Positions 8,478-35,368 of a DNA stretch of 54,603 nucleotides are shown piece after piece. The stretch is from a virus. Taxonomy: Duplodnaviria; Caudoviricetes. The translations under genes and the position numbers were made by a program. Below the pieces are notes generated by a model. That model saw nothing but the letters and a program-made list of their open reading frames with translations. It searched no databases and was not told the origin of the DNA. The stretch is taken from IMG/VR virus record IMGVR_UViG_3300017754_000846, positions 1 to 54,603 of that record; one strand, 5' to 3'. Every line of letters starts with the position of its first letter. The first letter of the stretch is position 1.

Positions 8478-9089
8478 ATGACTAAGAAACCTAGAGTTAC
8501 TAGAAAACAAAAAAAAGCAGATGCTATGTATAAAGCAAATCCTACATGGGCTGCTGAAGATAACTACACACCAAAAATGAAAACTGGTGGTATGGTAAAT
8601 TCTAATGCTAAAGTATCTGCTGCTAAAGCTGCAACAGGTAAAGTAGGTGGAGTAAGTAAAGCAATTTCTAAAACTGCTGTTAACAGTGCATCTCCTAAAG
8701 GAAATGTAGGTGGTATATCTAAAGCTCCTACAAAAGCTTTACCAAAAGCACAATTAGGTGCAATCATTAAAACTGCTAAAACTGCAGGAAAAGCTATTAC
8801 TACTGCACAAAGAGATTTAAAGGCAGCTAATTATGTTAAACAACTTGATAAGGCAAGAGGAGTTAAAGCCACAGCAGAAGCAAAAAAAGTTAATACTCTT
8901 TCAAAAATTGCAAATGCTCCAGGAGGTAAAACAGTAATTGGAGGTACATTAGCTTCAGGTATAGCTGGTTTAAATAGACTAAGTACACCTGGTAATGCTA
9001 AAGTTGCTGGTAAAGGTATGGCTTCTAAAGTAGCTTCTAAAGCTAATAAGCAAAAGATGGGTGGTTCAATGAAAGGTAAATCTTGCTAA
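8478..9089 (+). CDS. Lys/Ala-rich basic protein (histone H1-like composition) with xxGG motifs
   Basis: 203 aa, almost no acidic residues; KMKTGG, KAQLGA, KQKMGG; internal repeat GKVGGVSKA/GNVGGISKA. Confidence 0.75.
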   Translation: MTKKPRVTRKQKKADAMYKANPTWAAEDNYTPKMKTGGMVNSNAKVSAAKAATGKVGGVSKAISKTAVNSASPKGNVGGISKAPTKALPKAQLGAIIKTAKTAGKAITTAQRDLKAANYVKQLDKARGVKATAEAKKVNTLSKIANAPGGKTVIGGTLASGIAGLNRLSTPGNAKVAGKGMASKVASKANKQKMGGSMKGKSC

Positions 9090-9100
9090 TACTTTAGATC

Positions 9101-9601
9101 ATGGGACTTATAAGTAATGTTAAAACTGCAGTTAAAGCTGGTAAAAAAGCCTATGATGCATCAAAGGTAGCCAGTGTTAAAAAAGCAGCTGATGCTGCGG
9201 CTGCCGCTAAAAAAGCAAAAGATGCTGCAGATTCAGCTAAGAAATTAGCTAAAGCAGATAAGATTATTGCCAGAAGTAAAAAAGTAAAAAAAACTGCTGC
9301 AGTAGCTGCTGTTAGTGGTGGAGCTGGTGCTTACGGTTATAAGAAAGTTACTGAAAAAGGAATGTCTGGTGCATCTAAAGGTACAGCAGCTAAAGTTGCA
9401 GGAAAAGCAATAGCTAAAGCTACAACAGAAAAACTTACACCAAGCTGGATGAAAAATGCTACAAGCAATAAGAAAAAGTTTGGAGGACCTGTAAATGTAC
9501 AACCTGGTAAACCTGGTAAGATCAGATCTTCTGAAGATCAAGGTTACACAGCTATTGGTAAAAGAGAACCTAGTAGAACTAGTTTTAAGAAAGGTAAATA
9601 G
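9101..9601 (+). CDS. Lys/Ala-rich basic protein
   Basis: 166 aa; KKAADAAAAAKKAKDAA, KKKFGG; shares AKVAGK and KGM segments with the upstream ORF. Confidence 0.72.
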   Translation: MGLISNVKTAVKAGKKAYDASKVASVKKAADAAAAAKKAKDAADSAKKLAKADKIIARSKKVKKTAAVAAVSGGAGAYGYKKVTEKGMSGASKGTAAKVAGKAIAKATTEKLTPSWMKNATSNKKKFGGPVNVQPGKPGKIRSSEDQGYTAIGKREPSRTSFKKGK

Positions 9602-9606
9602 TTATT

Positions 9607-9756
9607 ATGGCAACAACTAAGAAAGATAAGAATTGGATTCAAAAAGCAGTTAACCCTAAACACAAGGGTTACTGCACTCCAATGTCTAAACCAACTTGTA
9701 CACCAAAGAGAAAAGCTTTGGCAAGAACATTTAAAGCAATGGCTAAAAATAAGTAA
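9607..9756 (+). CDS. Small basic protein (49 aa), not in the ORF track
   Basis: MATTKKDKNWIQKAVNPKHKGYCTPMSKPTCTPKRKALARTFKAMAKNK; fills the gap between neighbours (5 nt after one stop, 1 nt before the next ATG); phage-like codon usage. Confidence 0.8.
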   Translation: MATTKKDKNWIQKAVNPKHKGYCTPMSKPTCTPKRKALARTFKAMAKNK

Positions 9757-9757
9757 G

Positions 9758-10183
9758 ATGGCAAAACAAATGCTTAAACGTAAAGATGGTAGTGTATCTC
9801 AAAGAGGTCTTTGGGATAATATCCGTGCTAATAAAGGTTCGGGTAAAGCACCCACTAAGGATATGCTTAAGCAGGAAAAAAAGATCAAAGCCACTACAAA
9901 AATGAAAACCGGAGGTTCTACTCCAGCTTGGACAAGAAAAGAAGGTAAGAATCCTACAGGAGGCCTTAATGCTAAAGGAGTAGCATCTTATAGAAGAGAA
10001 AACCCTGGTAGTAAATTGCAAACTGCAGTTACTACAAAACCTTCTAAGTTAGCTCCAGATAGTAAAGCAGCTAAGAGACGTAAGTCTTTTTGTGCTAGAA
10101 TGTCTGGAATGCCAGGACCTATGAAGGATGAAAAAGGAAGACCTACAAGAAAAGCTCTTTCTTTAAGAAAATGGAATTGTTAA
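9758..10183 (+). CDS. DUF6321-like small basic phage protein with an N-terminal extra module
   Basis: PAWTRKEGKNPTGGLNAKGVASY...RRKSFCARMSG...SLRKWNC matches my recollection of DUF6321. The N-terminal GLWDNIRA module is separated from it by KMKTGG. Confidence 0.72.
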   Translation: MAKQMLKRKDGSVSQRGLWDNIRANKGSGKAPTKDMLKQEKKIKATTKMKTGGSTPAWTRKEGKNPTGGLNAKGVASYRRENPGSKLQTAVTTKPSKLAPDSKAAKRRKSFCARMSGMPGPMKDEKGRPTRKALSLRKWNC

Positions 10184-10195
10184 AAATTATATATC

Positions 10196-10666
10196 ATGGC
10201 AAAGAAATGTATGAGTTGTGGAGGCTCAATGAATAAAATGCAAAAGGGAGGAACAGCTGTTGAAAAAGCTCAAAAAGTTGTTGACCAAAGAAAATTAGAA
10301 AACATACGTAAGTACGCTAAGATGAAACAAGATAAAGGCCTTGTTCCGCCTCCTCCTCCACCGTCTAAAATGTATAAACAAGGAGGATCAGTAAAAATGC
10401 AAAAAGGTGGTACAATGAAAACTACAGTAGGAGGTCCTGCTAAGAAACCATTTGCTGCTGGAATTCCTTATTATACTGGTGCTGGTCAAACAGGTCCTGA
10501 ATCAATGCAAGTTGGGGGTGCTCTAAAAGGAGTTAAAACTTTATATAAAGGTAGTAAAATCTTAAATAAAGCTAAGTCTTTAGTAAATAATAAAATTACT
10601 AAAGGAGCTACAGGTCCAATGACTAAAACGGCTATGCGATTAAGAGCTACTGGTAAAAAGAAATAA
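10196..10666 (+). CDS. Basic protein with N-terminal CxxC and four xxGG motifs
   Basis: 156 aa; MAKKCMSCGG, KMQKGG twice, MYKQGG, SMQVGG, a Pro6 run. Confidence 0.72.
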   Translation: MAKKCMSCGGSMNKMQKGGTAVEKAQKVVDQRKLENIRKYAKMKQDKGLVPPPPPPSKMYKQGGSVKMQKGGTMKTTVGGPAKKPFAAGIPYYTGAGQTGPESMQVGGALKGVKTLYKGSKILNKAKSLVNNKITKGATGPMTKTAMRLRATGKKK

Positions 10667-10669
10667 GAT

Positions 10670-11371: not shown

Positions 11372-11376
11372 TAAAA

Positions 11377-11826
11377 ATGGACAAACCTAAATTATTAAAA
11401 AGAAGTGCTGAAGCTACAGCAAGTTATTCTGCACCGGCAGGAGGTAATTGTGATTCAATGACTTCAGCTTGTGTAAGTGAGTTAATGAATGCTGCAACTA
11501 GCTTTCATAAGTTACACTTAAAAGTAAATGGTGCGGGATCATATGCTGCACATAAAGCTCTTAATGAATTATATGATGCATTACCAGGACATGCTGATGA
11601 TTTAGCTGAAGGATATCAAGGGGCCTCAGAAAAACTATTAAGTTATACTGAAGTAGCACCTAGATCATTAGGAACAGTTGCAGATGGTCTAGCTTACATA
11701 CGTGAGATGTATCAAATGGTAAACGGATTACAGGCTAAGATGCCTTACTCAGAGATAGTAAATGATCTAGATACTGTAAAAAGTACATTAAATTCAATCA
11801 AGTATAAACTATTATTCTTGAAATAA
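11377..11826 (+). CDS. Dps/ferritin-like protein (DUF5856-like)
   Basis: HKLHLKVNGAGSYAAHKALNELYDALPGHADDLAEGYQG matches the Dps ferroxidase-type H..H...H..L...Y......D..AE pattern; C-terminal KYKLLFLK. Confidence 0.75.
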   Translation: MDKPKLLKRSAEATASYSAPAGGNCDSMTSACVSELMNAATSFHKLHLKVNGAGSYAAHKALNELYDALPGHADDLAEGYQGASEKLLSYTEVAPRSLGTVADGLAYIREMYQMVNGLQAKMPYSEIVNDLDTVKSTLNSIKYKLLFLK

Positions 11827-11844
11827 TTTTGAAATACTAAAATA

Positions 11845-11858
11845 TTTCACTATATTAA
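11845..11858 (+). promoter_or_regulatory. TTTCACTATATT promoter-like motif
   Basis: Recurrent intergenic T-rich + TATATT motif upstream of structural genes. Confidence 0.45.
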
Positions 11859-11888
11859 ATATATATTTATTAATTAAAACTAAAAACT

Positions 11889-13418: not shown

Positions 13419-13438
13419 CCCTAATTAATTATCATACT

Positions 13439-13473
13439 AAAAGGAGAGGAGTTTAACTCTTCTCCTTTTTTTT
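13439..13473 (+). terminator. Rho-independent terminator
   Basis: AAGGAGAGGAGT-tta-ACTCTTCTCCTT hairpin followed by a long T tract. Confidence 0.85.
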
Positions 13474-14048: not shown

Positions 14049-14237
14049 ATGGCAAATTGTTTAAATTGTAAAAAAGCATTATCATGTGGATGTCAGAAAA
14101 GAACAGCATCAGATGGTAAGTCAGTATGTTCAACATGTCTTCAAGGATATGAAGCTAGATTGAAACAAACACCAAAACCAGCAGCAACTACACCTACACA
14201 GGTATGGGGACCAAATAGATATAAAAAACAAATATAA
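14049..14237 (+). CDS. Small Cys-rich (Zn-binding-like) protein
   Basis: 62 aa with CxxC-x5-CxC-x11-CxxC. Confidence 0.7.
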   Translation: MANCLNCKKALSCGCQKRTASDGKSVCSTCLQGYEARLKQTPKPAATTPTQVWGPNRYKKQI

Positions 14238-18393: not shown

Positions 18394-19176
18394 ATGATAA
18401 CAAGAAAGAGATTATTTTTTGATATTGAAACAAGTTTTAATATTGGAATCTTCTGGAGAAGTGGTTATGGCTTAAACATAAATCCTGAAGATATAATTCA
18501 TGAAAGAGCAATTATTTGCGTAGCATGGAAATGGGAGGGAAAAGATAAAGTACACAGTCTTCACTGGGATGAAGATCAATCAGACAAACAGTTGTTAAAA
18601 GATTTTCTCAAAGAGTTAAATAAAGCAGATGAAATCATAGCTCACAATGGTGATAGATTTGACATCAAATGGCTACGCACAAGATGCTTAATTAATGATG
18701 TACCTATGTTCCCTACCTATCAGACCATTGACACTCTTAAATTAGCTAAGGCACAGTTTAATTTCAATTCTAATAAGCTAGACTATATTGCTCAAGTATT
18801 AGGTGTCGGAGCTAAGACTAAACATGAGGGTTTAGATATGTGGAAAAAGATTGTACTTGGTAAAGATCCAGTAGCTTTACAGAACATGATTGAGTACTGT
18901 AAAAATGATGTAGTGGTTCTAGAAAATGTTTATCACAAACTTAGACCTTATAGTAAAGGTAAAGTTAATTATGCAGTACTTAGAGGAGGTGATAAGTATG
19001 AATGTCCTAACTGTGGAACAGATCAAGTTAAGCTAAATAAAACATATACAACCTTACAGGGAACTATTAAGCATCATATGCGTTGTAGGGATAAATCATG
19101 TGGGACTAGTTATAACATTAATAATAAAACCTTTACAGATTTTCTGAAAGACAAAGTAAGAAAGAACATAAAGTAG
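18394..19176 (+). CDS. DEDD (RNase H-fold) 3'-5' exonuclease with C-terminal Zn ribbon
   Basis: ExoI FFDIETS, ExoII HNGDRFD, SNKLD, ExoIII YCKNDV; CPNC...CRDKSC. Confidence 0.85.
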   Translation: MITRKRLFFDIETSFNIGIFWRSGYGLNINPEDIIHERAIICVAWKWEGKDKVHSLHWDEDQSDKQLLKDFLKELNKADEIIAHNGDRFDIKWLRTRCLINDVPMFPTYQTIDTLKLAKAQFNFNSNKLDYIAQVLGVGAKTKHEGLDMWKKIVLGKDPVALQNMIEYCKNDVVVLENVYHKLRPYSKGKVNYAVLRGGDKYECPNCGTDQVKLNKTYTTLQGTIKHHMRCRDKSCGTSYNINNKTFTDFLKDKVRKNIK

Positions 19177-19237: not shown

Positions 19238-19822
19238 ATGAGTAAAGTATTTAATAAACCCAATTTAACAGATCCTAGATTTAGACCAGAAGTACACGAG
19301 ATGATGAATCAGGATTTTTTTAAAAGGTTCAAGGAGAAATATCCTAGATATAAGGATGTAGACAACGGGACCTTGAAAAAAGTTATTAAAGAGTTTAATA
19401 CTAAATTTTGGGAAACTGTAATAGATCATAGAGATGGTGTACAGTTACCAGAAGGATTAGGTTATTTATTTGTTGGAACATGTCAGACAAGCAAGAAGAC
19501 AAACATTGATTTTGGCAAGTCTAATAAATATGGAATAACAGTTACTAATACTAATTGGAATACAGATGGCAAACTAGCTAAGATATTCTACACTAATTAT
19601 GCTAATAAGTATCAGTTTGTAAACAGGGACTGTTGGGCATTTGTAGCTTGTAGAAACTTTAAAAGAACTTTAGCTAAAACTTATCCAGAGACTTGGATGA
19701 ATTATGTACAGGTAGATCCAATGAAGAAGATACGTAAGATGTTTCAAGGAGTAGTCCTTAAAGATATGAGAAAAAAGGCCGAGAGCAAAAAGCTTGAGGA
19801 CTATAATGAGTTTGACTTATGA
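19238..19822 (+). CDS. IHF/HU-like DNA-binding protein (crAss-like)
   Basis: Helix-helix followed by DGVQLPEGLGYLFV (HU/IHF V.L..FG.F pattern); basic; located before the ring and muzzle genes as in crAss-like phages. Confidence 0.65.
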   Translation: MSKVFNKPNLTDPRFRPEVHEMMNQDFFKRFKEKYPRYKDVDNGTLKKVIKEFNTKFWETVIDHRDGVQLPEGLGYLFVGTCQTSKKTNIDFGKSNKYGITVTNTNWNTDGKLAKIFYTNYANKYQFVNRDCWAFVACRNFKRTLAKTYPETWMNYVQVDPMKKIRKMFQGVVLKDMRKKAESKKLEDYNEFDL

Positions 19823-24500: not shown

Positions 24501-26743
24501 TAGATAATCAATACGGTCAACTTAATTCTATTAAGCAAATTCCAGCTACACCATGTGAACAAAAACTATCTGACTCAGGTATATCAGAAATAACAACTTC
24601 TGTATTCTGTCAAAGAGAGGTAGACGGTATTGTACAAACTTACCAGTTGAAGAAAAAAATAATTAGTCAGACTCCAGTATTCTTTGGAGGAGATACTTAT
24701 ATAAACAGATACACTGAGAAGAACAGTACATTTATGTTTTATGATTGGTTATATGATCAACCAGATGGTTTTGAGTTTAACTATAAACTAAGACAAATGA
24801 TACCGGATCCTAGATTCTGGTTAAACAGCATTCAGTATGAGGCTAGTGATTTGTGGAATAACGGTCTACAAGATATGTTTAATAACATTTCTACACCTGG
24901 TACAGGAGCAACACCTAGAAGATTTTATCAGTTAGATAATGAGAACTATAATTATTTTACAGATGCTGAAGGTAACTATCCAGGATTCTTTGGTGTTAAA
25001 CAATCTTTCTTTTACTTATCTACATCAGGTGTAAGAGACTTCTTTGTAGAGAGTGATGTTATTGTTGACTTTAGAGAATCAGGTATTCCTGAATGGGAAA
25101 AGAATTATGATGCAAATAAATACACAGATCTTATATCTATGTTTGATAGCAATCCTCAAAACATTACAAGAGGTAACTACTTTGCATATGATTATTCATT
25201 AAGTGTATCTAAAATCTTTACTCAGTATTTCTCACAGGGTAATCTACAGGATAGATATTATGATCCATTTGTAGCTAGCCTATGTTATTCTTATTATCCA
25301 GATAGAATCATCTATTCTTTACCTCAGCAAATTGAGTCAACTAAAGATAGCTGGTATATTTATTTAGCTAATAACTATAAAGAATTCAAAGCACAGATCA
25401 GCGGAGTTAAGAATTTTGCTAAGACCGGTATCTTCATTACATTTAAAAACTCAAGTCCTTTAGTAATACAAGGAGTTGATACACTAGAGACAGATGCAGG
25501 TACTAAGATTACTATTGGTGATGGAGGATTATTTAATCAGACACCACAGAGTATTGTTGTAGCAGATGCACCATATGAATATGGATCATCTCAGAATAAG
25601 TTCAGTGTAATTTCTACACCGGCTGGTATGTTTTATATGTCTCAGAATCAAGGTAAGATATTTTCTTATGCCCAAGGTTTAAGTGAGATTTCACAAGAAG
25701 GTTTGAAATGGTGGTTTACATTATTCTTACCATATAAGTTACTAGAGGATTTTCCTGATTATCCATATCAAGATAATCCAGTAGCTGGTATTGGATGTCA
25801 ATCTATCTATGACAATCAGAACAGTATCTTATATTTCTGTAAGAAAGACTTTAAGTTAAAACCTCAGTACATTGATAGAGTTGTATTTGATAAACGTAAA
25901 AGAGCATTTATATTAGATGGTAAGTCTAAGTTTGATATTGGTGATCCATTAATATTTAATGATGCTTCTTGGACAGTAAGTTATGACCCTAAGAGTAAGT
26001 TCTGGATATCATTCCATGACTGGCACCCTGAATTAGTAATGCCATCTAAGTCTACTTTCTTGACTATTAAGAATAATGGTATATGGAGACATAACTTTAT
26101 TTGTGATACTTACTGTAGATATTATGGTATAGATTATCCATTTGAAGTAGAGATGCCTTTAGCTACTGGTCAAACAGTAACTACATTAAAATCTATGGAG
26201 TACATCTTAGAGTGTTCTAAGCGTGCACTTAACTGTGTGGATCAATATCAAGTATTAGATTATAACTTTGATAAGGCCGTTGTATTTAATACAGAGCAAG
26301 CATCTGGATATCTTAATTTAAATCCATTCCCTAAAAATAATGTGACTCTAAGTTTAGACTATCCTAAGTTAAATACAGCTAACCCTTCTTTTGATATCTT
26401 ATTCTCTAAAGAGGAAAACAAATATAGATTTAATCAGTTCTGGGATATTACAAGAGACCGTGGTGAGTTTCCTATTGGAGATACTTATCCTAATACTCTT
26501 CCTGTAATACCGGGTACAACTATTTTACCAGGAGCTCATGAAGAACAAAACATCTGGGTAACTGAGTACAATGGTTATATTAAATCTCTTAATGCAGTTA
26601 ACTTAGATTATGCTAAACCTGCATTACAAAGAAAAAAATTCAGACATTACTTGAATTTCTTAAATTTGAGAAAAGATTACTCAGGTAATGTGAATATGAT
26701 TCTTAAGTTAGTAAATAGTAAAAATCAAATATCACCAAGATAA
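21524..26743 (+). CDS. Muzzle / tail stabilisation protein
   Basis: 1739 aa; KGLNKD...NA.N N-terminus, YLRDEVYAFFIRW, GGDTYINRY, WTVSYDPKSKFWISFHDWHP beta-propeller motifs typical of crAss-like stabilisation proteins. Confidence 0.8.
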   Translation: MANNMQDTNKNQTNSFLKGLNKDSDPSFVTEGMWTHARNASNNTREGDLGSISNEIANVACAYAGLTLGTPTSKKYIIGTIYLYSDKWVIFTVAYNATGIGAAIGHEIGLFEEDTCSYRPIVQDACLNFSKYHLITGSSREVEDCSWQVYWADERNNPDRVLNIGDPNTWPTSDFIWNNNNTYINPLGESMQWPGVAWNQDCNTVNSCIICTDLTTLNCDAIRLARLVDTPCVKTSLAVGAGTLRNGSYAACIAYSIQGQKVTDYYSISNQQPIFTDNDNEGSLNIEIKADSTHFSEFILVVIQTVNQGTVAKQIGIYSTKTTLVHLDQIKEDLITVPIREIPIQTPVFEKSDQIIEVNNYLLRVGPQSKFDFNYQPLANLIQTEWVSTEYPANYYVNGGSNTSYLRDEVYAFFIRWVYNTGDKSASYHIPGRVATNYQVPGGISSYEAGPYAGDINILPGDNKLFQVYNTASVTSLATTTLADGGVVIGRGKMGYWESTETYPDDQDNVWNATSQCWTGMTIPSQAYDLCGLNIRHHKFPDNALHPVTNHFSPGGDKIRLMGIDFKNITYPKDNDGYDIPGIVGYEILRGSREGNRSIIAKGMINNYRPYHIKNNPSKKGLYANHPFNTILPVNVAGYDDPYFKIVDDDNDTIHIQQTDIPKDIVSFHSPDTSFRNPYLSVTELKLYGHLQGTATEQFIEPNKHPQAKLIADAALFPMILGGLVEAIISLLGKRTINTPGGAYQDQYGMEIIEGTSVPFTPGWNLATVDAGLYATGSFAFNQALNAYFGGGGSIADIVAGGNILEGIYNTFKGTGNVKEATVLSTELGPGQLLGLVPTLAQAAYYFSEGAATTLRLIYALIPYRQYALQMVAHAYYNLFSAPLGTPAQGSVRKRFNVEDSFYLRDTLQDMSGQPYRINNLKRSHNVTVRTSGGVSRAVDGPRFLLNPGERDDTLVTVGTAINSGSNLDFDGNLANPFLKTATSHYAGLKVQLDNQYGQLNSIKQIPATPCEQKLSDSGISEITTSVFCQREVDGIVQTYQLKKKIISQTPVFFGGDTYINRYTEKNSTFMFYDWLYDQPDGFEFNYKLRQMIPDPRFWLNSIQYEASDLWNNGLQDMFNNISTPGTGATPRRFYQLDNENYNYFTDAEGNYPGFFGVKQSFFYLSTSGVRDFFVESDVIVDFRESGIPEWEKNYDANKYTDLISMFDSNPQNITRGNYFAYDYSLSVSKIFTQYFSQGNLQDRYYDPFVASLCYSYYPDRIIYSLPQQIESTKDSWYIYLANNYKEFKAQISGVKNFAKTGIFITFKNSSPLVIQGVDTLETDAGTKITIGDGGLFNQTPQSIVVADAPYEYGSSQNKFSVISTPAGMFYMSQNQGKIFSYAQGLSEISQEGLKWWFTLFLPYKLLEDFPDYPYQDNPVAGIGCQSIYDNQNSILYFCKKDFKLKPQYIDRVVFDKRKRAFILDGKSKFDIGDPLIFNDASWTVSYDPKSKFWISFHDWHPELVMPSKSTFLTIKNNGIWRHNFICDTYCRYYGIDYPFEVEMPLATGQTVTTLKSMEYILECSKRALNCVDQYQVLDYNFDKAVVFNTEQASGYLNLNPFPKNNVTLSLDYPKLNTANPSFDILFSKEENKYRFNQFWDITRDRGEFPIGDTYPNTLPVIPGTTILPGAHEEQNIWVTEYNGYIKSLNAVNLDYAKPALQRKKFRHYLNFLNLRKDYSGNVNMILKLVNSKNQISPR

Positions 26744-29073
26744 TGTATAATAAGAAAGCACTCAGAACTATTGTAAAGAACTTAGACAAAGCAAAAGCTC
26801 CTGCTAAACCTAAAGACATTATTGTAGATCCCATGGGTCAATGGAAATATCCTGGGCAAAAGACTAGAATACCTGGAGGTGATATTACTATGCAAGGTGT
26901 ATCATATCCAGTATGGGCACAACCTAATGTAGGTACAGGACAACTTATGCAACCAGGTCAGGATTATAAATTTCCTGGAGCAGATTATGTTGATGAAACT
27001 CCTATTGCTAAGAAAGGTGGAAGTCTTAAAAAGTATTCAAGAAGTCTAGAGGCTAAGAATAAAATATTTGCTGATAACCCACTTACTAAGAAACCTAAGT
27101 CTAAAAAGATCTTTGATCCTACATCCAAGAATTATAAAAATGGTGGAGTAAACCAGACACCTAGTCTTCCTTTAAAAGCAGGTCGAGAGGTGTATGAAAC
27201 ATTTGCATATGGTATGTATGACAGACCAGGATGGCAAAAACAAGATGGTGGAGAAGCATGGGATGCTGAACTTACAGATGAAGAAATCCAAGCATATAGA
27301 GATGCAGGATATGAAGTAGAAGATCTAGAAGATAATACTTTCCAACAAGGAGGTTATTTTTCTTATGGCGACAAGAAGTACATGAAGAAAGATGGTAAGT
27401 GGTTAGTTGAGTCTAATGGCAAGTATATACCCCTATCTAAGAATGTAGCTGAGAGAAGTGCTGTACTTAATAAACAAGCTAAGTATGTTAAACCTTCAGC
27501 TTCAGCTAAGTCACAATATGAGTTAGATCAAGAAGCTAGAAAAGCTAATTATTTTAATCCGGACTATTCTGTATTACCAAATATTAAACAACAAGTAGCT
27601 GAATCAACAGTACCTGCTATTTCATATGATAAACAATTACAAGCAAATAGAACAGGTAGTGATGCTAGAAAATCTAAAGAAGCAGCCAATTTAAGAGAAG
27701 AAACTATACAAGCTGTAAAATATAATAGTGGGTTACCTCAAGATCAAATAGATGATATTCTTATGGACCCTAGAAAACTTGCTAAGTATAAATATTTAGG
27801 AGAACAAAGAATGTATGGTAATCCTCAAGAAACTGAAATTAATAATAGATCTAAGACAGCACCTCAAGGATTATTTAGTAAAGGTTTAGATGTATTATCA
27901 AATCCTTTTACTGCTATTACTACAATGGGAAGTGGTGAAGGTTTACCTGATTACATGCAGAAAAATCTAGATAGAGGTACATTTGCATATACTAAAAATG
28001 CTGCTGTTCATACTGAAAGAAATCCCTTAGACTATGTTGTAGATTTTACTCCACTTGGTTTGATCAATGATGCAAGAAATGTTGTAAACGGAATTGCAGA
28101 AGGAGACTGGGGAAAAATAGGTTGGGGATTAGCTGGTGCAGTACCCGGTGTAAGTGAGCTAAGAAGTGCAGGTAAAGCTGCTAATCTTGGATCTAAAGCA
28201 AGCAAAGTTGTCAAACCAGTTTCTAAAAATGTTAAACGTGCAGTAGATATTGGATACTCTGGATTAGGCAAAGGTATCATGAATAAATATAATCCTCTTA
28301 ACTTAGTACCTAATTATGGTAAAGCAGTAAATAATCCTAGAATAGAATTAGGTAATGTATTAGAAGATGTTGTACGTTCAGGTAATGCAACTGTATCACA
28401 AGGACCTTTGCAAAAAATGACTAATACCATAAGAAGAACACCTACGCCTGTTATGAAAGCAGGTAAAAATACAAGTAGGAATAATGCAAAGTCTATATTT
28501 CAGTTAGAAGTAAATCCTAATACGGTTGGTTCAAATGTAAAATATGCAAATGATCCTATAAAAAGAACTGGTCAAACATATAGAAATGTTAGGAAAGCAA
28601 TTAATCCAAAATATGATGTAAATAATAAGGCTGCTTATGAATTAAAATATGGTAGAAACCCGGCTACACAAATTCCTTTATCAGATCCTGGAGTTGCTTT
28701 ACAAAGAAGATTACCTTTCTCAAATAGGTATGTTAAAGTAGATCCCGCAAAATTAGCTAATAATCAAGTTCAATGGGCAACTAGAGGAACGGGTTTACAA
28801 AACTTAGCAGAAAAATACGGATCCACTGCATTAACCCTTCCAGCAATAGCAGCTTTATTATCAGGTCATGAAAAAGGTTATGGTAATGTATTTAGTAATA
28901 CAATAAGCAAAATTGATCCTTATAGTTTTGTAAAAGACTATAATCCTTATTATGTAAAAGATATTTATAAAGGTTTAATAGAAAAAGACGGTGGAGAGAT
29001 TGAAATGGATGCAGATGAAGATATGATTAACTACTTAAGATCTCAAGGGTATACGGTAGAGGACATTGACTAA
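26743..29073 (+). CDS. Virion cargo (internal/ejection) protein, modular, xxGG-punctuated
   Basis: 776 aa immediately after the muzzle; ITMQGVSYPV...QPGQDYKFPG module, AKKGG/YKNGG/KQDGG/FQQGG/EKDGG motifs, hydrophobic helix pair. Confidence 0.6.
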   Translation: MYNKKALRTIVKNLDKAKAPAKPKDIIVDPMGQWKYPGQKTRIPGGDITMQGVSYPVWAQPNVGTGQLMQPGQDYKFPGADYVDETPIAKKGGSLKKYSRSLEAKNKIFADNPLTKKPKSKKIFDPTSKNYKNGGVNQTPSLPLKAGREVYETFAYGMYDRPGWQKQDGGEAWDAELTDEEIQAYRDAGYEVEDLEDNTFQQGGYFSYGDKKYMKKDGKWLVESNGKYIPLSKNVAERSAVLNKQAKYVKPSASAKSQYELDQEARKANYFNPDYSVLPNIKQQVAESTVPAISYDKQLQANRTGSDARKSKEAANLREETIQAVKYNSGLPQDQIDDILMDPRKLAKYKYLGEQRMYGNPQETEINNRSKTAPQGLFSKGLDVLSNPFTAITTMGSGEGLPDYMQKNLDRGTFAYTKNAAVHTERNPLDYVVDFTPLGLINDARNVVNGIAEGDWGKIGWGLAGAVPGVSELRSAGKAANLGSKASKVVKPVSKNVKRAVDIGYSGLGKGIMNKYNPLNLVPNYGKAVNNPRIELGNVLEDVVRSGNATVSQGPLQKMTNTIRRTPTPVMKAGKNTSRNNAKSIFQLEVNPNTVGSNVKYANDPIKRTGQTYRNVRKAINPKYDVNNKAAYELKYGRNPATQIPLSDPGVALQRRLPFSNRYVKVDPAKLANNQVQWATRGTGLQNLAEKYGSTALTLPAIAALLSGHEKGYGNVFSNTISKIDPYSFVKDYNPYYVKDIYKGLIEKDGGEIEMDADEDMINYLRSQGYTVEDID

Positions 29074-29131: not shown

Positions 29132-32100
29132 ATGAAAAGACGTGTAAGAATATATAAAGCTGGTGGAGAACACTCAGCTGATTTAACAAGAGCCCAACAA
29201 GGAATGGAGATGCAACCAGCTCAAGAACAAGCTCCAGCTCCTACAGCACAAGATGTAATGACTTACATGTTACAAGTTATTAGTCAAGGTTCTACATTAG
29301 ATGAAGCTACACAAGCTGTTGTTAGTCAAGGTATTCCGATGGATCAGGCTACAATGATAGCAAATCAAATTGATGAATATGTTAAGCAACAAGCAGATGC
29401 TAACATGGCTCAAGAGACTGATGATGAAGACTCTGCTGAAAAACTTGCTATGCAACAAGAAGCTGAAGAAGCTGCTGCTGCAGAGGAAGAAGCACGCGCT
29501 GCAAGAATGCAACAAATGTATACACAAAATGAATCTGACTATACAGGAAGTACTGAAGATGACTCAGATCTTTATATGAAGTTAGGTGGGGTAAAAAGTA
29601 AAAGAGACTACATAAAGAATTATATGAGTCTTGCTAAGAAACAAATGGGTGGAGGAACTGAACAAGTTAAACCTGATCTTAGAACTGATGTACCTATTAA
29701 TGGTAGAACTGAACACTTACAAAAATTCTTAGGAGCGGTTAAATCAACTGCTCAAACTGCTGCATTAAAGAAACAAGCAGAAGAAGCTTATAATCAAGAA
29801 ATGCAAGCAATGGCTCAAGAAGGTGGAATGTATCCTAATGCTGATGAAGATCCGGAGAATCCGATGCATCACTTAGGTTTATACTCACAAGGTTTGAACC
29901 AGGTATTTGATAATGATATGATTACACAAGCTCAATTTGGTGGTGGACTCTTTAATGGAAGAGGTCAACAAAGAAGAGCAATGAGAAGAATGAATAGAAT
30001 GTTCCCTGTAGGAATGGTTCCACAAGGAGCTATGTTCCCACAAGGATTTAATATAAATAACTTAAATGCATTTATTCCACAGAGTGGTTTACCTAATGGA
30101 CAATCAACAGCAACTCCTCAAGGTTTTGGTGGATATGGTCTTGCTAATATTGATGTAAGAAGAACTGGCCTATTTGGTAGACCAAAAGAATATACTATTA
30201 ACTTTAATACTGCTGCTCCGGTTCAACCAAAAGAAGCTGAAGACTTAATTGAACAAGCAACAACTAATGCTGAAGCAACTGCAAAAGAAGAAGCAGAAAC
30301 AGCTAAAGCAGCTGAGACTAATACAAGTAGCACAACTAATGCTAAAGTGCAGGAGGAAGCAGCTAAGACAGCTGATGTACAAACTGCAGATGGAGTTACA
30401 GCAGAAGTAAAAGCTAAAGATAAAAGTAATACTGGTAAAGCAAAACCTGTAGAAAAAATAAAAGAAATAATAGAAGAAGAAATTATTCCTGTTGGTTCAC
30501 CTGTTAAAAACACTTCAAATACTAAAGTTGGACCATATAACTTTTCTGGTGTAGCTGATGCAGGTAAGGCTTTTGGACAAGCTTATCTTGATAATCAAAA
30601 AGCAGCAAAAGTTGCTAAATGGAAAGAGTATCAAAGACAACAAAAAATTGATGCTTTACCTTGGTTAGAAAAACAAATGTGGTATGCAGAACACCCTGAA
30701 GATAAACCTTCAGTTAAAAGTAATGCAAAACCAAAAACTACTTCAAATAAAACTAAAGCTAAAAATTTAGTAGGTGATATGATGAATCCAATTGCTGAAA
30801 TACCTAGTTGGTTATTTTCTCCTAGTGATTCTGGAGGAGGTGATAATATTGGATATCAAGTAGGTGGTTTTACAGATCCTGAATCAGGACTTTATAAGTT
30901 TTTTGCTGGAGGTGAAGATCCTTCTATTCCACAATTATCTCAAGCTGATATTGACTACATGCACAGTAAGAATACTACGGACCCTTATTTTGCATATGGT
31001 GGTTATTTTCAAGATGGTGGTGATAATACTCCTGTAGATATTTTAGATGCTAAGGGTAATGTAGTAAGACGTGGTACTCAAGCTGAAGCAGAAAGAGCAG
31101 GACTTAATCATAGATTAGTTGAAGAGGAAGACAACCAAACAACTAATGAAGATGTAACTACTGAAACAAATACAAATCCATATATTCAACAATACAACAA
31201 TAGATACAATCAATATCCAGCAATGTATCCAAGAGCTTATGGAGCAGGAAGAGCAATTCAACGCGCTGGTTCATGGGATAAACAAAAAGGTTCTCCTTAT
31301 ATGACAGGAACTAATAATCCATATATGGGTCAATTAGGTCCGGGTTCTGCTATTAGTAGTATTGATGTTAAAAGATCTGGTATGTTTGGTGCACCTAAGA
31401 AGTACACTATAAACTATTCTGTACCGGGGCAAGCAGGTATTAATGCAAACAAAACTCAAAGCTATAAAGGTTCTGATGGTCAAATGCATTTTATGAATAA
31501 TGCAAATGCTAATCAACAAGCTCCAGGTACTGCAGATGGAAGAGAGTCTAGACTTAAAAGCATGTATAGAAGAATGACTGAGAAAGGATTCTCCACACCG
31601 GAAGAATCTGGATCAACAGGTTTACATGATAAGAATGACGAGAAGTACAAAAAAATCTATGGACATTATCCAGGTGAACAAGCTAATGGTAGACCAGAGT
31701 TACCAGAGATGGGTAAACTAGCTACTAAACCATTAGAAGAAGCAACACCTCTTAATAATCAAGTTATTAGAAATCAGGCTGATTTAAATCCAGAGATGTA
31801 CAATAACTTACCTAACATGCAGACTAAAGGTCAAGGTATGTTAAACTTACCTGAGATTCAGAATGAAAGAGTTGCACAAACTTTTCCATCTGCAAATCCT
31901 CAGCAAGCACCAGAGAATCTTTCTCCTGTAGTTAATACAGCAGGACCAAGAGCTGGTATGGAAGACTATACAGGTTTTGGTGATTATCAAAATCCAGTAA
32001 TGCCTGAAGCAGATTATATGCAAGATTCATTACAGATACAAGGTAATCCTTATAACTTTGGTATGGACACAGCTCCTAATGAAGAGGAGATGGCCGCGTA

Positions 32101-33199
32101 CTTACAAAATAATTTAATGCCTGGGGTACCTGGTTTTGAATATCCTGCTTATCCTCATTTTAATGATGCTGGTCAATATATTAATATGCCTAAAGAAGTA
32201 TATAATAGTAGACCTACTAGAAGATCATATAATGTTAATCCGGTTAATACTTCTCCTAGTAGAAATACTAATCCTATTAACACAAATACTTTTTCAAAAA
32301 AAGAAAATAAAGAAGCAGAAGGTCAAGCTTATAACCAGTTACTAGATATGCGTAATCAAGCATCAGGAGATGATCCAGCAACTTTTAGAAAATCAGCACA
32401 AAAAATTGATGCTACTGGTAAAAGAATGTTCCGTAACATGTCTAATTCTCAAAAATTAGATTACTTAAAGAAACTTAAAAAATTAGATTTAAATCAGTAC
32501 AATAGTTATCTTACTCTTTTACAAGATGGAGGATCTTTACCTCAAGCTCAAAAGCTAGGTGAGTTTAATTACTCAGGTAATGATATTCCTTTTGGTTATT
32601 TTAAAGATCCTACAACAGGTTTAATTAAAAATCTTGCAGGAGACATTTATAAACCAACTACTAATTTACAAGGTAATGCAGATAAGTTAATGAATACTAA
32701 TGACTTAGTAAGTCAAGGTAATGGTTTAACTACTGATAAATCTATGGGTTTTGATGCATCTGGAGAACAATACAGAAATGATGGTTTATTATCTGATGCA
32801 GAAAAAGAAGCACAAGCTAGACAAAATGTATCTGTAGATGTTAAACGCAAAAACATGTGGGATGTAAATGGACCATTACTTAATGATAAGATTAATCGTG
32901 GAGTTAACTTTGCATCAGGTATCTTAGAAAAACTAAATGCGGCTAAAGCAAATAAAGGCATGTATGATAGATATAATGCTGATGAGTTATATGCTGTAAA
33001 TCAAGATAAGGACAGAGGTACATATGATATTAACTCTGGATTATTTAGACCTGATGAGATGGGCTTTACAGGAGTTGCTGCATTAGGTGGTTACATGCAA
33101 GAGGGTGGAGCTTCCTATGAAGAAGGTGGTGACACTTATATGTCAGAAGAAGAAATCCAACAGTTCCTTGCAGACGGTGGTGAATTAGAATTTATTTAA
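29132..33199 (+). CDS. Virion cargo protein, largely low-complexity, xxGG-punctuated
   Basis: 1355 aa, Q/M/N/P-rich, with more than a dozen xxGG motifs and an internal duplicated motif. Confidence 0.6.
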   Translation: MKRRVRIYKAGGEHSADLTRAQQGMEMQPAQEQAPAPTAQDVMTYMLQVISQGSTLDEATQAVVSQGIPMDQATMIANQIDEYVKQQADANMAQETDDEDSAEKLAMQQEAEEAAAAEEEARAARMQQMYTQNESDYTGSTEDDSDLYMKLGGVKSKRDYIKNYMSLAKKQMGGGTEQVKPDLRTDVPINGRTEHLQKFLGAVKSTAQTAALKKQAEEAYNQEMQAMAQEGGMYPNADEDPENPMHHLGLYSQGLNQVFDNDMITQAQFGGGLFNGRGQQRRAMRRMNRMFPVGMVPQGAMFPQGFNINNLNAFIPQSGLPNGQSTATPQGFGGYGLANIDVRRTGLFGRPKEYTINFNTAAPVQPKEAEDLIEQATTNAEATAKEEAETAKAAETNTSSTTNAKVQEEAAKTADVQTADGVTAEVKAKDKSNTGKAKPVEKIKEIIEEEIIPVGSPVKNTSNTKVGPYNFSGVADAGKAFGQAYLDNQKAAKVAKWKEYQRQQKIDALPWLEKQMWYAEHPEDKPSVKSNAKPKTTSNKTKAKNLVGDMMNPIAEIPSWLFSPSDSGGGDNIGYQVGGFTDPESGLYKFFAGGEDPSIPQLSQADIDYMHSKNTTDPYFAYGGYFQDGGDNTPVDILDAKGNVVRRGTQAEAERAGLNHRLVEEEDNQTTNEDVTTETNTNPYIQQYNNRYNQYPAMYPRAYGAGRAIQRAGSWDKQKGSPYMTGTNNPYMGQLGPGSAISSIDVKRSGMFGAPKKYTINYSVPGQAGINANKTQSYKGSDGQMHFMNNANANQQAPGTADGRESRLKSMYRRMTEKGFSTPEESGSTGLHDKNDEKYKKIYGHYPGEQANGRPELPEMGKLATKPLEEATPLNNQVIRNQADLNPEMYNNLPNMQTKGQGMLNLPEIQNERVAQTFPSANPQQAPENLSPVVNTAGPRAGMEDYTGFGDYQNPVMPEADYMQDSLQIQGNPYNFGMDTAPNEEEMAAYLQNNLMPGVPGFEYPAYPHFNDAGQYINMPKEVYNSRPTRRSYNVNPVNTSPSRNTNPINTNTFSKKENKEAEGQAYNQLLDMRNQASGDDPATFRKSAQKIDATGKRMFRNMSNSQKLDYLKKLKKLDLNQYNSYLTLLQDGGSLPQAQKLGEFNYSGNDIPFGYFKDPTTGLIKNLAGDIYKPTTNLQGNADKLMNTNDLVSQGNGLTTDKSMGFDASGEQYRNDGLLSDAEKEAQARQNVSVDVKRKNMWDVNGPLLNDKINRGVNFASGILEKLNAAKANKGMYDRYNADELYAVNQDKDRGTYDINSGLFRPDEMGFTGVAALGGYMQEGGASYEEGGDTYMSEEEIQQFLADGGELEFI

Positions 33200-33208
33200 C
33201 TTTGTGTT

Positions 33209-35368
33209 ATGTACTATAGAGTAAAAATTAAAAAGCTTCCAGGTAAAGCAACTGGAGGTGCAGCAGGAAACAAGATTGTTCCTAATCAGACATTAAGTTT
33301 TGGTGGAGCTGATATGAATATGGGCCCTGCAAAACCTCAACTTAGAAAAACAATGACAGCTATTCCTAGAGATAAGGCTAACGTTGAAGTTGAAGACAAT
33401 GAAGTTATTGTAGGTGACTTAGCTGGAGACGGTATGATTGGTACTGCTGTAGCTAAAGGAGAGAGACATAGTAATGGTGGGATTCCTTTGAACTTGCCGG
33501 ATGATACTTTTATCTTTAGTGATACAAGATCAATGTTGATTAAGGATCCTGCAATGTTGACTAAATTTGGTAAGGGTTCCATTGACGGGAAAAAGTCTAA
33601 GGGTTATACTCCTGCTGAACTAGCTAAGCCATATGATGTTACTAAGTATAGAAAAATTCTTCAAGATCCACAATCAGATGCAATTGATAGAAAGACTGCA
33701 GAGATGATGATCAAGAACTATACTATGAAATTAGGAGCTCTTGCTATTGCACAAGAAAGTAAAAAAGGATTTCCTCAAGGTATTCCTTCATTGGCTAGAC
33801 CATATATGGAAGCTAATAATATTAAGGATGAAGATTTAATTCCTCAGTTACCTCAGCAACAGAATCCACAAGAGGAAATGATGGAAGTAGGTCCTGAACA
33901 AAACTATCAAGAAGAAATGATGGAGGCACCTCAACAGATGCCTAATGGTCAACCTATTGCTATGCCTCAAGAAATGGAACAAGGTATGATGCCACCAATG
34001 GCAGCATATGGATATGAGATGCCTTCTTATATGGCTTATGGTGGTTATCTTCCTGAAGCACAAGAAGGTGTAGTAATTAATCCATATGAGAATGCTAGAA
34101 CGGCACAAGGTAATGTTACTCCAACAGGTAAATCAAATAAGTATAGTACAAGAGACCAAAACATTAAAGAATACTTAATGCAATGGGAAGGTCTTATACC
34201 TGGTATATCTAAAATGAGTGAAGGTAAAGCACAAGCTGCTATCTATGATTATAACTTAGAGAATAATCCAGATGCTATTAAAGCAATGTGGCAAGAGTAT
34301 GGTCTTACAGCAAAAGGTAAGAAGAATGCTACGTTACGTAAGTTAACTAAGAATGGTGTATTTGATGATGAAACATTAAAAGATCCGGAAGTACTTAAAC
34401 AATTAAAAGATGCATATGTAGACAACTACTTTGGTGCAAGACAGATGGAACCTGCAAAAGCTAAACCAGCTCCTGCAGAAGAAGTACCTGTAGAAGAAGT
34501 TGTAGCAGAAGAAGAAGAAGTACCAGCTAAAGAAGTAGAACGTCCAGATGATGGATCTGACTTTGAAGTTACTCCTGATCAACCTTATACAACTAATGCT
34601 GATTGGATGACACCTGATAGAGTTAATTATTATGGAGCTCTTAAGGATAAGTCAATGATCAAAAAGTATATGCCTTGGGCTCCTCAGTACAATCCTGAAA
34701 TAGCACAAGCTGTATATCTAGATCCTACAAGAGAGTTAGGTGCACAGTCTGAACAAGCTAATATGATCTTACAAGGTTTAGGTCAATTTACTGGACCACA
34801 AGCAATGTCATCAAGAGCATCAAGTGTACAAGGTACAGGAGCTGAACAAGCTGCTAATACATTGTCTAGAATTAATAATGCTAATGTTCAACTTGCTAAT
34901 CAATTTGCAGCTAATAACGCAGCTACAAGAAATCAAGCTCAGCAAATTAATCAGGCAAGTGCACAAAGATTATATGATCAGAATACAGCAGCTAACCAAG
35001 CATATGATAATGCAAGAGCTATGGCTGATCAAAATGTAAGACAAAGCTTTAACACAGGATGGAACAATGCTTCTAGACTAGCACTTACTAATGGTTTGTA
35101 TGAGCAATATGATATTGATCCTGTAACAGGTAATGTGGTATTTCAAGGAGGTAAAGAGGCAACGCCAGTTAATAGCAAGTCTATCTCTGAAAGAGCAGCT
35201 GAATTAAGACGTGAAGGTTGGGACCAAAAGATAGCTTATCAAATGGCTAAAGATGAAATAACTGGTAGATCTAATATTGGTGTTGACCCTGAAGCAGTAA
35301 TGGAAAATTATGCACAGAAAGGTGGTTACGTTTTAGGGGATAACATATTCCCATTCATGTTCTACTAA
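33209..35368 (+). CDS. Virion cargo/ejection protein
   Basis: 719 aa; NVEVEDNE...GERHSNGG...FIFSD module resembling crAss-like cargo proteins; Q/N/A-rich helical C-terminus typical of ejection proteins. Confidence 0.62.
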   Translation: MYYRVKIKKLPGKATGGAAGNKIVPNQTLSFGGADMNMGPAKPQLRKTMTAIPRDKANVEVEDNEVIVGDLAGDGMIGTAVAKGERHSNGGIPLNLPDDTFIFSDTRSMLIKDPAMLTKFGKGSIDGKKSKGYTPAELAKPYDVTKYRKILQDPQSDAIDRKTAEMMIKNYTMKLGALAIAQESKKGFPQGIPSLARPYMEANNIKDEDLIPQLPQQQNPQEEMMEVGPEQNYQEEMMEAPQQMPNGQPIAMPQEMEQGMMPPMAAYGYEMPSYMAYGGYLPEAQEGVVINPYENARTAQGNVTPTGKSNKYSTRDQNIKEYLMQWEGLIPGISKMSEGKAQAAIYDYNLENNPDAIKAMWQEYGLTAKGKKNATLRKLTKNGVFDDETLKDPEVLKQLKDAYVDNYFGARQMEPAKAKPAPAEEVPVEEVVAEEEEVPAKEVERPDDGSDFEVTPDQPYTTNADWMTPDRVNYYGALKDKSMIKKYMPWAPQYNPEIAQAVYLDPTRELGAQSEQANMILQGLGQFTGPQAMSSRASSVQGTGAEQAANTLSRINNANVQLANQFAANNAATRNQAQQINQASAQRLYDQNTAANQAYDNARAMADQNVRQSFNTGWNNASRLALTNGLYEQYDIDPVTGNVVFQGGKEATPVNSKSISERAAELRREGWDQKIAYQMAKDEITGRSNIGVDPEAVMENYAQKGGYVLGDNIFPFMFY

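Follow-up and report, generated by a model that had tools for sequence, protein, structure and literature searches.

Why do otherwise unrelated proteins of one phage, encoded at two separate loci, carry the same short peptide ending in Gly-Gly? The question is raised by a stretch of 54,603 nucleotides of phage DNA (positions 1 to 54,603 of the IMG/VR virus record IMGVR_UViG_3300017754_000846; Duplodnaviria, Caudoviricetes), here called the window, in which the peptide punctuates four small basic proteins and three large cargo-type proteins of 776, 1355 and 719 amino acids (aa), designated A, B and C. The original prediction, made from the sequence, was of a protease site or a capsid-targeting tag. 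The motif has a direction, is restricted to these proteins and is conserved in their relatives, and in the large proteins it is associated with an acidic mini-module, the tag. Its most likely function, to which we give a probability of about 0.4, is that of a docking or packaging seam in a modular set of particle-internal, ejected proteins. The + strand holds every long open reading frame (ORF) of the window, which carries the virion module of a crAss-like phage, and all features described below are on that strand.

Occurrence of the motif in the window

All 29 of the pentapeptides originally listed are present in the proteins named, with eight in the basic proteins (8478 to 10666), five in protein A, 13 in protein B, and three in protein C. 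The pattern that was given for them, [MFYKA][QKAE]xGG, fits 25 of these, but not QKMGG, EKDGG, LQDGG, or LADGG. The two loci, described as 16 kb apart, are separated by 16,077 bases, and the half-sites are also as described (AQLG in the 203-aa basic protein, AQQG in protein B, AQEG in protein C).

The frequency of the motif exceeds that expected from composition. There are 25 matches to the original pattern in the seven named proteins (3516 aa) against 3.03 expected, and none of 2000 per-protein shuffles reaches this number (mean 3.03, standard deviation 1.7, maximum 10). The other 21 proteins of the window (14,387 aa) have 3 matches against 3.6 expected. With a stricter pattern, [MFYLIVW][QK]xGG, there are 14 matches against 1.2 expected in the seven proteins, and 0 against 2.0 expected elsewhere in the window.

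It was considered whether the signal lies in the DNA, as internal Shine-Dalgarno or start sites. The Gly-Gly codon pairs (GGTGGT 11, GGTGGA 7, GGAGGA 4, and GGAGGT 3 of 27) track overall glycine usage, so that the signal is in the peptide and not at the codon level, and Tyr or Phe can replace Met; this candidate was rejected.

The motif in related phages

Because the pattern had been read off the same proteins, it was tested in relatives. The major capsid protein of the window has 599 confirmed relatives in IMG/VR, and the loci of the best 80, all at least 90% identical, were used. A further 27 cargo loci were fetched with the 1013-aa protein, encoded 3' of the muzzle gene like proteins A to C, as anchor, and one complete relative of 121,494 bases with terminal repeats, here called G002, served for whole-genome comparison. 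ORFs of relatives were called mechanically from the first Met, and related sequences are not independent samples, so that counts in them overstate the number of independent events.

In its full form the motif reads Phi-[K/Q/A]-x-G-G-x-[V/I/T], where Phi is Met, Tyr, or Phe, and it recurs in 306 distinct basic ORFs and 48 cargo ORFs. Among the 706 GG contexts of the basic ORFs, position -3 from the first Gly is Met in 225 (8.2 times background) and Tyr in 58, position -4 is Lys in 304, and position -2 is Lys or Gln in 393. In the 48 distinct complete ORFs upstream of the 1013-aa anchor, GG density is 1.06 per 100 residues, against 0.33 downstream, and of 512 GG there 187 have Met, Phe, or Tyr at -3 and 252 have Ala, Gln, or Lys at -2. 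These cargo ORFs have 122 motif matches against 22.0 expected, a number reached by none of 200 shuffles, while the ORFs downstream have 12 against 17.7. In G002, the stricter pattern is found 11 times against 1.7 expected in the seven equivalent ORFs and 10 times against 8.2 in the other 122.

Shuffling in blocks of 12 residues leaves 2.5, 32, and 27 matches expected in the window, basic, and cargo sets, where 17, 295, and 122 are observed. The reversed pattern is rare, at 2, 30, and 8, which is a forward excess of 8- to 15-fold. These two controls together exclude low-complexity composition as the source of the motif.

Constraint is seen on both sides of the glycines. Two positions past GG, all three data sets have Val, Thr, or Ile at three to four times background, and at the first position, in the basic proteins, there is Ser, Thr, Ala, or Met, with Lys at 0.07 times background. 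Before one and the same GG the residues vary within a class (YMKL, EFKM, DYKT, DFAK). The basic ORFs carry several dispersed copies, mostly internal, at a median spacing of 33.5 residues, with 39 of 160 spacings at 8 to 15 residues; a first site among the opening 25 residues is expected in 28% of ORFs and found in 42%.

The motifs had been placed at module boundaries and near the termini. This is confirmed only in part. Of the 28 sites examined in the three large proteins, 13 keep their position in half or more of the orthologues, and most of the others are in lineage-specific inserts. Among orthologues at 30 to 50% identity the conserved sites are at residues 92, 169, and 750 of protein A, 152, 173, 1319, 1325, and 1349 of protein B, and 32, 90, and 705 of protein C. 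Whether domains are swapped at GG had been put forward as a check. Homology breakpoints in the basic ORFs are within 5 residues of a GG in 47% of cases against 26% at random, a figure that is biased by the shared motif itself. Module content between the seams differs among close relatives, and the motif often flanks conserved short modules.

In Leptolyngbya phage Lbo-JY46, a cultured but distant relative whose capsid protein is 27.9% identical, the basic cluster is missing and the 27 ORFs examined show no excess of the motif.

The basic mini-protein locus

Four small proteins of 203, 166, 141, and 156 residues are encoded between the capsid-region genes and a conserved virion gene, with 20-26% Lys plus Arg and 3-6% Asp plus Glu. 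The 203-aa Lys-rich protein (8478 to 9089; 20% Lys plus Arg, 3% Asp plus Glu) has six GG, including MKTGG at residues 33-37 and QKMGG at 192-196, and an LPKAQLG element; it has orthologues in 36 of the 80 related loci, at 36-74% identity. The 166-aa Lys/Ala-rich protein (9101 to 9601), with KKFGG at residues 125-129, has orthologues in only 8 of the 80. The 141-aa basic protein (9758 to 10183) has MKTGG at residues 49-53, followed by a C-terminal DUF6321 domain (residues 63-139; PF19846, E 7.6e-25), to which its NPTGGL belongs, this being present also in pelagiphage and cyanophage homologues that have no motif. The 156-aa basic protein (10196 to 10666) has an N-terminal CxxCGG, followed by MQKGG, YKQGG, MQKGG, and MQVGG, which makes four pattern matches against 0.38 expected. 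In its family two motifs bracket a conserved Pro/Gly-rich peptide (PFAAGIPYYTGAGQTGPES), and none of its 51 database relatives is named.

Across 48 loci with capsid proteins at least 90% identical, this slot holds from 3 to 10 ORFs of changing length between the same flanking genes, and fused and split arrangements vary freely among close relatives. The four basic proteins of the window have partners in only 5 to 46 of the 80 loci, at 26-91% identity. The locus behaves as a hypervariable cassette locus, and in its Lys-rich mini-proteins the motif is almost the sole survivor of rapid turnover.

Two further features of these proteins were seen. In 27 distinct basic ORFs from the 80 loci (L001-L080) the protein starts M-x(2-5)-C-x-x-C-G-G directly before the first K-M-x-K-G-G, as at 10196 to 10240 in the window, and homologues of the 156-aa protein often have a second Cys pair (SCKxGMVRxExGRC), which is absent from the window copy. 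Such Cys pairs could be a small metal-binding knuckle. DUF6321, for its part, is present in 542 deposited phage records, mostly of T4-like cyanophages and T7-like pelagiphages, and in the pelagiphages its gene is flanked by those for scaffold and capsid, next to tiny Lys-rich ORFs. Small basic head proteins may thus form a class that is widespread but unstudied; no publications on DUF6321 were found in the searchable literature (subscription papers and supplements lay outside the search). That the motif might be a general feature of DUF6321-associated head proteins in aquatic phages was rejected: a 35-aa ORF of pelagiphage Eistla has KMLKGG, but its homologue in HTVC119P has KKMLTKKQ instead, and the motif is also absent from a cyanophage DUF6321 protein of 936 aa.

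The cargo-type proteins and the acidic tag

Protein A (26743 to 29073) is encoded directly 3' of the muzzle gene and has GG at residues 45, 92, 134, 169, 203, and 750, of which those at 92, 169, and 750 are conserved in 5, 4, and 7 of 8 orthologues. Relatives of its family carry SLT, VanY, lysozyme, and amidase domains. Protein B (29132 to 33199) has 19 GG, with 11 matches to the original pattern against 0.97 expected; its GG at 152, 173, 1319, 1325, and 1349 are conserved in 11 to 14 of 14 orthologues and the rest are in lineage-specific inserts. Protein C (33209 to 35368) has GG at residues 16, 32, 90, 278, 647, and 705.

The basic N-terminal head of B (MKRRVRIYKAGG; 29132 to 29167) has a GG that is conserved in none of 14 orthologues, and the paralogous head of C (MYYRVKIKKLPGKATGG; 33209 to 33259) has one in only 1 of 20, where the orthologues mostly have TGY. 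Both heads share MxxKVRIKK.., and the net charge of the first 12 residues is +2 to +7 in 15 orthologues of B and 18 of C. The last 12 residues of A and B have a net charge of 0 to -3. The tail of C (YAQKGG-YVLGDNIFPFMFY; 35309 to 35365) has a GG within 8 columns in 20 of 20 orthologues, in which it reads ..KKGGxxxxxGG[FY][VI]YxDxxxPF[IL][LM]. Within B, MKLGG and KQMGG (29576 to 29653) bracket a basic amphipathic segment of about 20 residues, which reads xxKKKQFVKNVMSLLKKQx in relatives, and their GG are conserved in 13 of 14 and 14 of 14 orthologues.

In proteins A and B the motif is part of a larger unit. This tag is an acidic mini-module of about 30 residues, in which GG and 3-6 residues are followed by (E/D)L(T/S)xEEIxxYxxGGY(I/V)VE(E/D)(L/I), commonly with SVPxLxxAQxG(G), PKAQxG, or xxYQxGG after it. 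Protein A has an internal copy (..QKQDGG-EAWDAELTDEEIQAYRDAGYEVEDL, then FQQGG; 27112 to 27327; hmmsearch domain E 2.4e-10), which is conserved in the A4 consensus, and a C-terminal copy (..IEKDGG-EIEMDADEDMINYLRSQGYTVEDI; 28897 to 29067; domain E 1.4e-10). The tails of all 8 orthologues of A read Phi-x-K-G-G-x4-L[TS]xxEIxxYxxxGY[IV][IV]E. The C-terminal tag of B (AALGG-YMQEGG-ASYEEGG-DTYMSEEEIQQFLADGGELEFI; 33056 to 33196) matches the tag profile at a domain E of 5e-17, and orthologues of B end YGxYGG-YMQDGG...MTxEE(L/I)xxF(L/M)AxGG(Q/E)(V/I)E(Y/F)(L/I).

A profile of the tail tag, built from 26 sequences and 48 positions long, was searched among 1.84 billion proteins and found 1026 representative proteins at E <=0.001, 102 of them at 1e-10. 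The best 150 hold 332 copies, with two or more in 122 proteins, and 125 of the 332 copies end within 5 residues of the C-terminus. Copies are found between domains and after them, in some cases in proteins with cell-wall hydrolases. There is a GG within 14 residues upstream of the core in 279 of the 332 tags, and within 14 residues downstream in 108 of 206 internal tags. Outside the tag envelopes the same proteins have 199 forward motifs and 31 reversed, with 51 expected. At least one Pfam family is present in 14 of the 35 best tag hits (including SLT, phage lysozyme, Amidase_2, VanY, PG_binding_1, ART-PolyVal, and SET), and in none of these 35 does a Pfam family cover the tag. As most tag-bearing proteins have the N-terminus of protein A, they may all come from this one fast-evolving phage group, and no wider range is claimed.

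Proteins A, B, and C of the window match no Pfam family. A search of IMG/VR with protein B and one of the phage collection with protein C gave no match, and a profile of protein C against PDB sequences found nothing better than E 0.36. In the AlphaFold2 model of protein C (mean predicted local distance difference test score, pLDDT, 53.7) all six GG are in segments below 50, which make up 51% of the chain, and two of them abut confident domains. For protein A the mean pLDDT is 39.7, and the internal tag is modelled, at low confidence, as a strand at 164-166, GG at 169-170, a strand at 173-175, and a helix at 179-187.

A possible docking or packaging seam

If the motif is a docking or packaging seam, many weak copies of it would recruit and hold the proteins in the procapsid. 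Their partner may be a common receptor, or the proteins may bind one another, the acidic tails and tags against the basic heads and mini-proteins. The motif could form a short strand-turn-strand, in which the Gly-Gly would also serve as a joint, so that the modules can unfold and be threaded through the tail. In the cargo proteins the seam would open, and often also close, an acidic mini-module placed between functional domains and at C-termini. In favour of docking are the restriction of the motif to one set of proteins, its survival under turnover, the constraint on both sides of GG, the association with the tag, the complementary charge, and the predicted flexibility. The two-sided constraint is more in keeping with an element that is folded or bound than with a protease site confined to the non-prime side. 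We infer a virion location for the seven proteins from gene position and from phage crAss001, and likewise that they dock and that they are not cleaved at the seams.

Several points weigh against this. The receptor is hypothetical, and with such poor models of C and A the strand-turn-strand would rest mainly on sequence statistics. The motif is directional with its strongest constraints N-terminal to GG, in which it also resembles a protease site. The placing of all seven proteins in the virion is presumptive. In crAss001, the ordered segments of cargo protein C1 are near GG (2-18 residues, mean 8.5), a closeness equalled by 10.7% of random placements, so that bracketing of these segments by GG is not significant and was rejected as support.

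Cleavage and other explanations

The main rival to docking is that the seams are cut after assembly by a capsid-internal protease, which might be the polymerase polyprotein's HExxH domain or an enzyme that has escaped recognition. Anchor tags would be removed and modules or peptides released, as in T4, adenovirus, and African swine fever virus (ASFV). We regard this as a possibility to be held tentatively. The preferences from -4 to -1 are strong and directional, and in the basic proteins small residues (Ser, Ala, Thr) follow GG. Conserved sites bracket both the amphipathic segment in B and the conserved peptide of the 156-aa family, C-terminal tags come just after GG in the manner of cleavable anchoring tails, and the free variation between fused and split ORFs would also fit. 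The register of the motif does not fit. Its hydrophobic residue is most frequent three positions before the first Gly, at P5, where the consensus of adenain, PLpro, and C39 has Phi at P4. In the P4 register, Phi-[QKA]-G-G, there are only 17 and 14 matches in the basic and cargo sets against 295 and 122 in the real one. Pro can stand directly after GG: it does so at 13 of 295 sites in the basic set (0.84 times background) and at 19 of 464 in the representatives (0.72 times), and only in cargo is it low (1 of 122). Tandem sites 8-15 residues apart are common, which also counts against cleavage.

The zincin domain had been named as one candidate protease. The motif in question, HEAWH (residues 879-883 of the polymerase polyprotein; 47123 to 47137), is conserved in a packaged protein, with YHE[AS][WF]H.F[ST]QL in all 8 relatives long enough to show HExxH and in G002. 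The assignment as a peptidase goes no further than HExxH: for this region, Pfam gave no family, peptidase or other, even with E allowed up to 10, and the best PDB sequence hit was no better than E 0.36. Zincins, moreover, usually select the residue after the cut and not GG before it. Between the window and G002, 6 of 19 GG are conserved in the polyprotein, the 2015-aa, and the 1013-aa proteins, and of these only AAQFGG in the 1013-aa protein fits the original pattern. Conserved motif sites are thus missing from the 2015-aa protein, from most of the 1013-aa protein, and from the RNA polymerase polyprotein, the one protein that the literature expects to be cleaved. Drobysheva et al. (bioRxiv 10.1101/2020.03.07.982082) call fused polymerase polyproteins "likely cleaved" and write that the zincin-like domain "might" activate the polymerase or digest peptidoglycan. 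The main text of Iyer et al. 2017 (PMC5512222) proposes that polyvalent proteins are processed by zincin-like peptidases, which favours cleavage here, and has the N4 virion RNA polymerase, with a similar peptidase domain, packaged unprocessed, which does not.

No protease suited to the site was recognised in G002. Pfam was scanned with 124 of its 129 ORFs (five that span locus borders were left out) and PHROGs with 37. Neither scan found a clan CE, C39, papain-like, or prohead protease, nor any S78, U35, S80, S49, or assemblin-type family; for clan CE this holds at E up to 0.01. The only peptidase-related hits are Peptidase_C92 (NlpC/P60-like, the sole papain-like hit), a DUF2201 metallopeptidase-like/VWA protein, and ClpS. 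There is neither a C39 peptidase nor an ABC transporter in G002, and the motifs are mostly internal, unlike double-glycine leaders (C39/PCAT). Of the original interpretation, a single peptide grammar common to the basic and cargo proteins and found almost nowhere else in the genome has stood, and cleavage has lost ground on the points given above. The combined evidence lowers, and does not eliminate, cleavage at GG. That the seams are cut by a capsid-internal protease unrecognisable from its sequence, perhaps the HExxH domain, as an adenovirus-like maturation in a phage of the HK97 lineage, is somewhat doubtful. If it were so, the docking tags would be clipped off, and effector modules would be set free for delivery into the host together with small cationic peptides, for instance the amphipathic segment of B.

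It is less likely that the motif is a passive joint, in which GG and a hydrophobic neighbour make a turn or hinge between small folding units with no partner and no cleavage. GG in low-confidence segments beside predicted helices and strands, the beta-branched second residue, and the many sites in lineage-specific inserts would all be expected of a joint. It leaves unexplained the Met at -3 and Lys or Gln at -2 in near-unstructured Lys-rich proteins, and the absence of the pattern from the muzzle and the polymerase subunits.

Far less probable is a recombination seam, in which junction peptides are kept since their coding DNA gives short homology for module swaps, as is said to have been proposed for the VENN junction of CdiA toxins. 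The differing module content between seams in close relatives and the repetition of the tag within and between genes are in keeping with this. The Gly codons follow general usage, the flanking codons vary, fifteen bases are too few for homologous exchange, and selection is at the level of amino-acid class (YMKL, EFKM, and DYKT at one site).

Chance or low-complexity composition, suggested by proteins rich in Gly, Lys, Gln, Met, and Tyr and by a pattern defined after looking, is refuted by the shuffles, the reversed pattern, and the recurrence of the motif in relatives.

Genome context

The terminase large subunit, portal, capsid, tail rings 2 and 1, and muzzle were identified in the window by family scans. 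The major capsid protein (5755 to 7371) is of Crass type (PF23898, E 4.9e-31), and the R1 and R2 tail rings and the muzzle are present in Crassvirales order at 19819 to 26743 (PF25702, E 1.1e-23; PF24228, E 2.5e-9; PF25731, E 8.9e-21). There are six large ORFs 3' of the muzzle gene, of 776, 1355, 719, 1013, 2015, and more than 3371 residues. The last (44489 to 54601) runs to the end of the window, and besides the HEAWH at residue 879 has DFDVD at 2526-2530; by this DFDxD, at motif level, it is classed as a fused polymerase polyprotein of crAss type.

The capsid protein matches at least 3168 clusters (90% identity) at E <=1e-10, the best 120 of which are all at least 86% identical; JGI, ENA, and Tara are among the sources. 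In deposited phage records, 50,697 in number, it has only two weak matches. This phage group is very abundant, uncultured, and aquatic. Between the window and G002, identity is 94% for the capsid protein, 80% for the portal, 78% for the terminase, and 57% for the muzzle, and falls to 58%, 30%, and 52% (partial alignments) for proteins A, B, and C, 42% for the 1013-aa protein, 34% for the 2015-aa protein, and 43% for the polyprotein; three of the four basic proteins have no BLAST hit in G002. Within one operon there is thus a steep gradient of divergence, in which the proteins likely to enter the host evolve far faster than the shell.

An acidic protein of 426 aa (4448 to 5728; 19.5% Asp plus Glu) is encoded between the portal and capsid genes and has no family in Pfam or PHROGs. 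From its position and composition it is a candidate scaffold and possible docking partner. Its start is uncertain, as the listed ORF begins at a TTG and orthologues align only from residue 14-28 (4448 to 4520). The start of the 2015-aa ORF is also uncertain, its listed GTG overlapping the end of the 1013-aa ORF by 44 bases (38430 to 38473). Residues 1649-1723 of this polymerase-associated giant protein (43374 to 43598) are a PD-(D/E)XK or exonuclease-like stretch (phrog_298, E 2.4e-8), and the orthologue in G002 has a weak PDDEXK_1 match.

Other genes within the virion module include a DUF5856 protein (11377 to 11826), whose PHROGs label is "starvation-inducible transcriptional regulator" (phrog_858, E 4.3e-22); a DpsA-like gene is annotated in crAss001, elsewhere in that genome. 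A 62-aa ORF (14049 to 14237) between virion genes has seven Cys (CLNC...CGC...C..C) and no family was found for it. Midway through the structural operon, with tail-type genes on one side and the ring proteins on the other, is the gene for a DnaQ-like 3'-5' exonuclease (18394 to 19176; phrog_403, E 5.4e-65; RNase_H_2). Outside the region covered by the window, G002 has the ClpS homologue (E 1.8e-10; L113:12681-12929), the Peptidase_C92 protein (L112:451-942), and several homing endonucleases (GIY-YIG, LAGLIDADG) that interrupt replication genes (L108:2740-8727).

Novelty and significance

No description of the seam or tag was found in the searchable literature, and the motif pattern seems to be undescribed. 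How head proteins are selected and how they exit through the tail is known for few models, such as T4, P22, and T7, and crAss001 has the only virion atlas by cryo-electron microscopy found for the crAss-like phages, in which only short bound pieces of one cargo protein are resolved. A short, countable signature would make it possible to predict the internal and ejected proteome of an abundant uncultured aquatic phage group. It would be a handle for fast-evolving injected effectors and for probable anti-defence proteins, and would offer a concrete, testable candidate for either a tag for packaging or a site of maturation. Should the tag work as a packaging signal that is portable, such capsids could also be loaded with foreign proteins by means of it.

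Comparison with known systems

Adenovirus and ASFV have basic DNA-associated precursors and large internal proteins with a hydrophobic residue followed by Gly-Gly, which are cut by clan CE proteases. The adenovirus consensus is (M/I/L)XGG, with the hydrophobic residue one position closer to GG than here. Apart from this difference at P4, no clan CE protease was found in G002, and the capsid protein here is of the HK97 lineage (PF23898).

Encapsulin cargo-loading peptides and the C-terminal tails of the P22 and herpesvirus scaffolds are short terminal peptides that dock to an HK97-fold shell, and in herpesvirus the tail is cut away once the shell has assembled. Each of those is one peptide at a terminus, whereas the element described here is also internal and repeated, and is not known to contact the shell.

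The polyvalent proteins are large multidomain proteins, injected in the known system, and in this they are like the relatives that bear the tag, with Pfam domains in 14 of 35. None of the 35 holds a peptidase other than VanY, and an embedded zincin-like metallopeptidase, as in the polyvalent proteins, is absent from these 35; the conserved HExxH is in the polymerase polyprotein. A word search of the main text of Iyer et al. 2017 found no description of such a seam or tag.

Protein A is encoded in the same position, after the muzzle gene, as crAss001 gp45 (cargo protein C1). The 842 residues of gp45 hold 20 GG, several of the form Phi-A-x-GG (among them FAEGG and FAYGG, besides KAFGG), and its C-terminal tail has a double GG; in gp46 there is a single GG. 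There is a difference in that crAss001 has no basic mini-protein cluster after its capsid gene. That protein C is an orthologue of C1 was considered and rejected. Pfam, hhalign, and Foldseek against the PDB gave nothing, there is only a language-model hint from the Atlas (score 0.93; a second look-up there found nothing), and PF25725 (crAss_CARG1), to which gp45 scores 2.3e-66, was not found in A, B, or C at E up to 10 (hhalign probability 0.1). The resemblance between NLEAEGGETVYGD...FIFSD of protein C and NLVEQGEVVYDDYVFSD of gp45 is by eye only. According to the main text of Bayfield et al. 2023 (PMC10172136), short segments of C1 are bound to the portal and to the tail rings, with residues 214-245 docked in the tail barrel and residues 425-552 on the portal; words for cleavage, proteolysis, or protease are not present in that main text.

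The locus is like that of the T4 internal proteins IPI, IPII, and IPIII in that variable small proteins, which share only a short signal, are encoded among head genes. In T4 this signal is one peptide at the N-terminus, which the prohead protease cuts off at Leu/Ile-x-Glu. Here there are multiple copies along the chain, which are common to the large cargo proteins, and the prohead protease family was not found in the G002 ORFs scanned. In the passages of a review that deal with them, the T4 internal proteins share only a capsid-targeting sequence. That shared targeting sequence, together with the docked segments of C1 in crAss001, is taken as the precedent for a docking seam.

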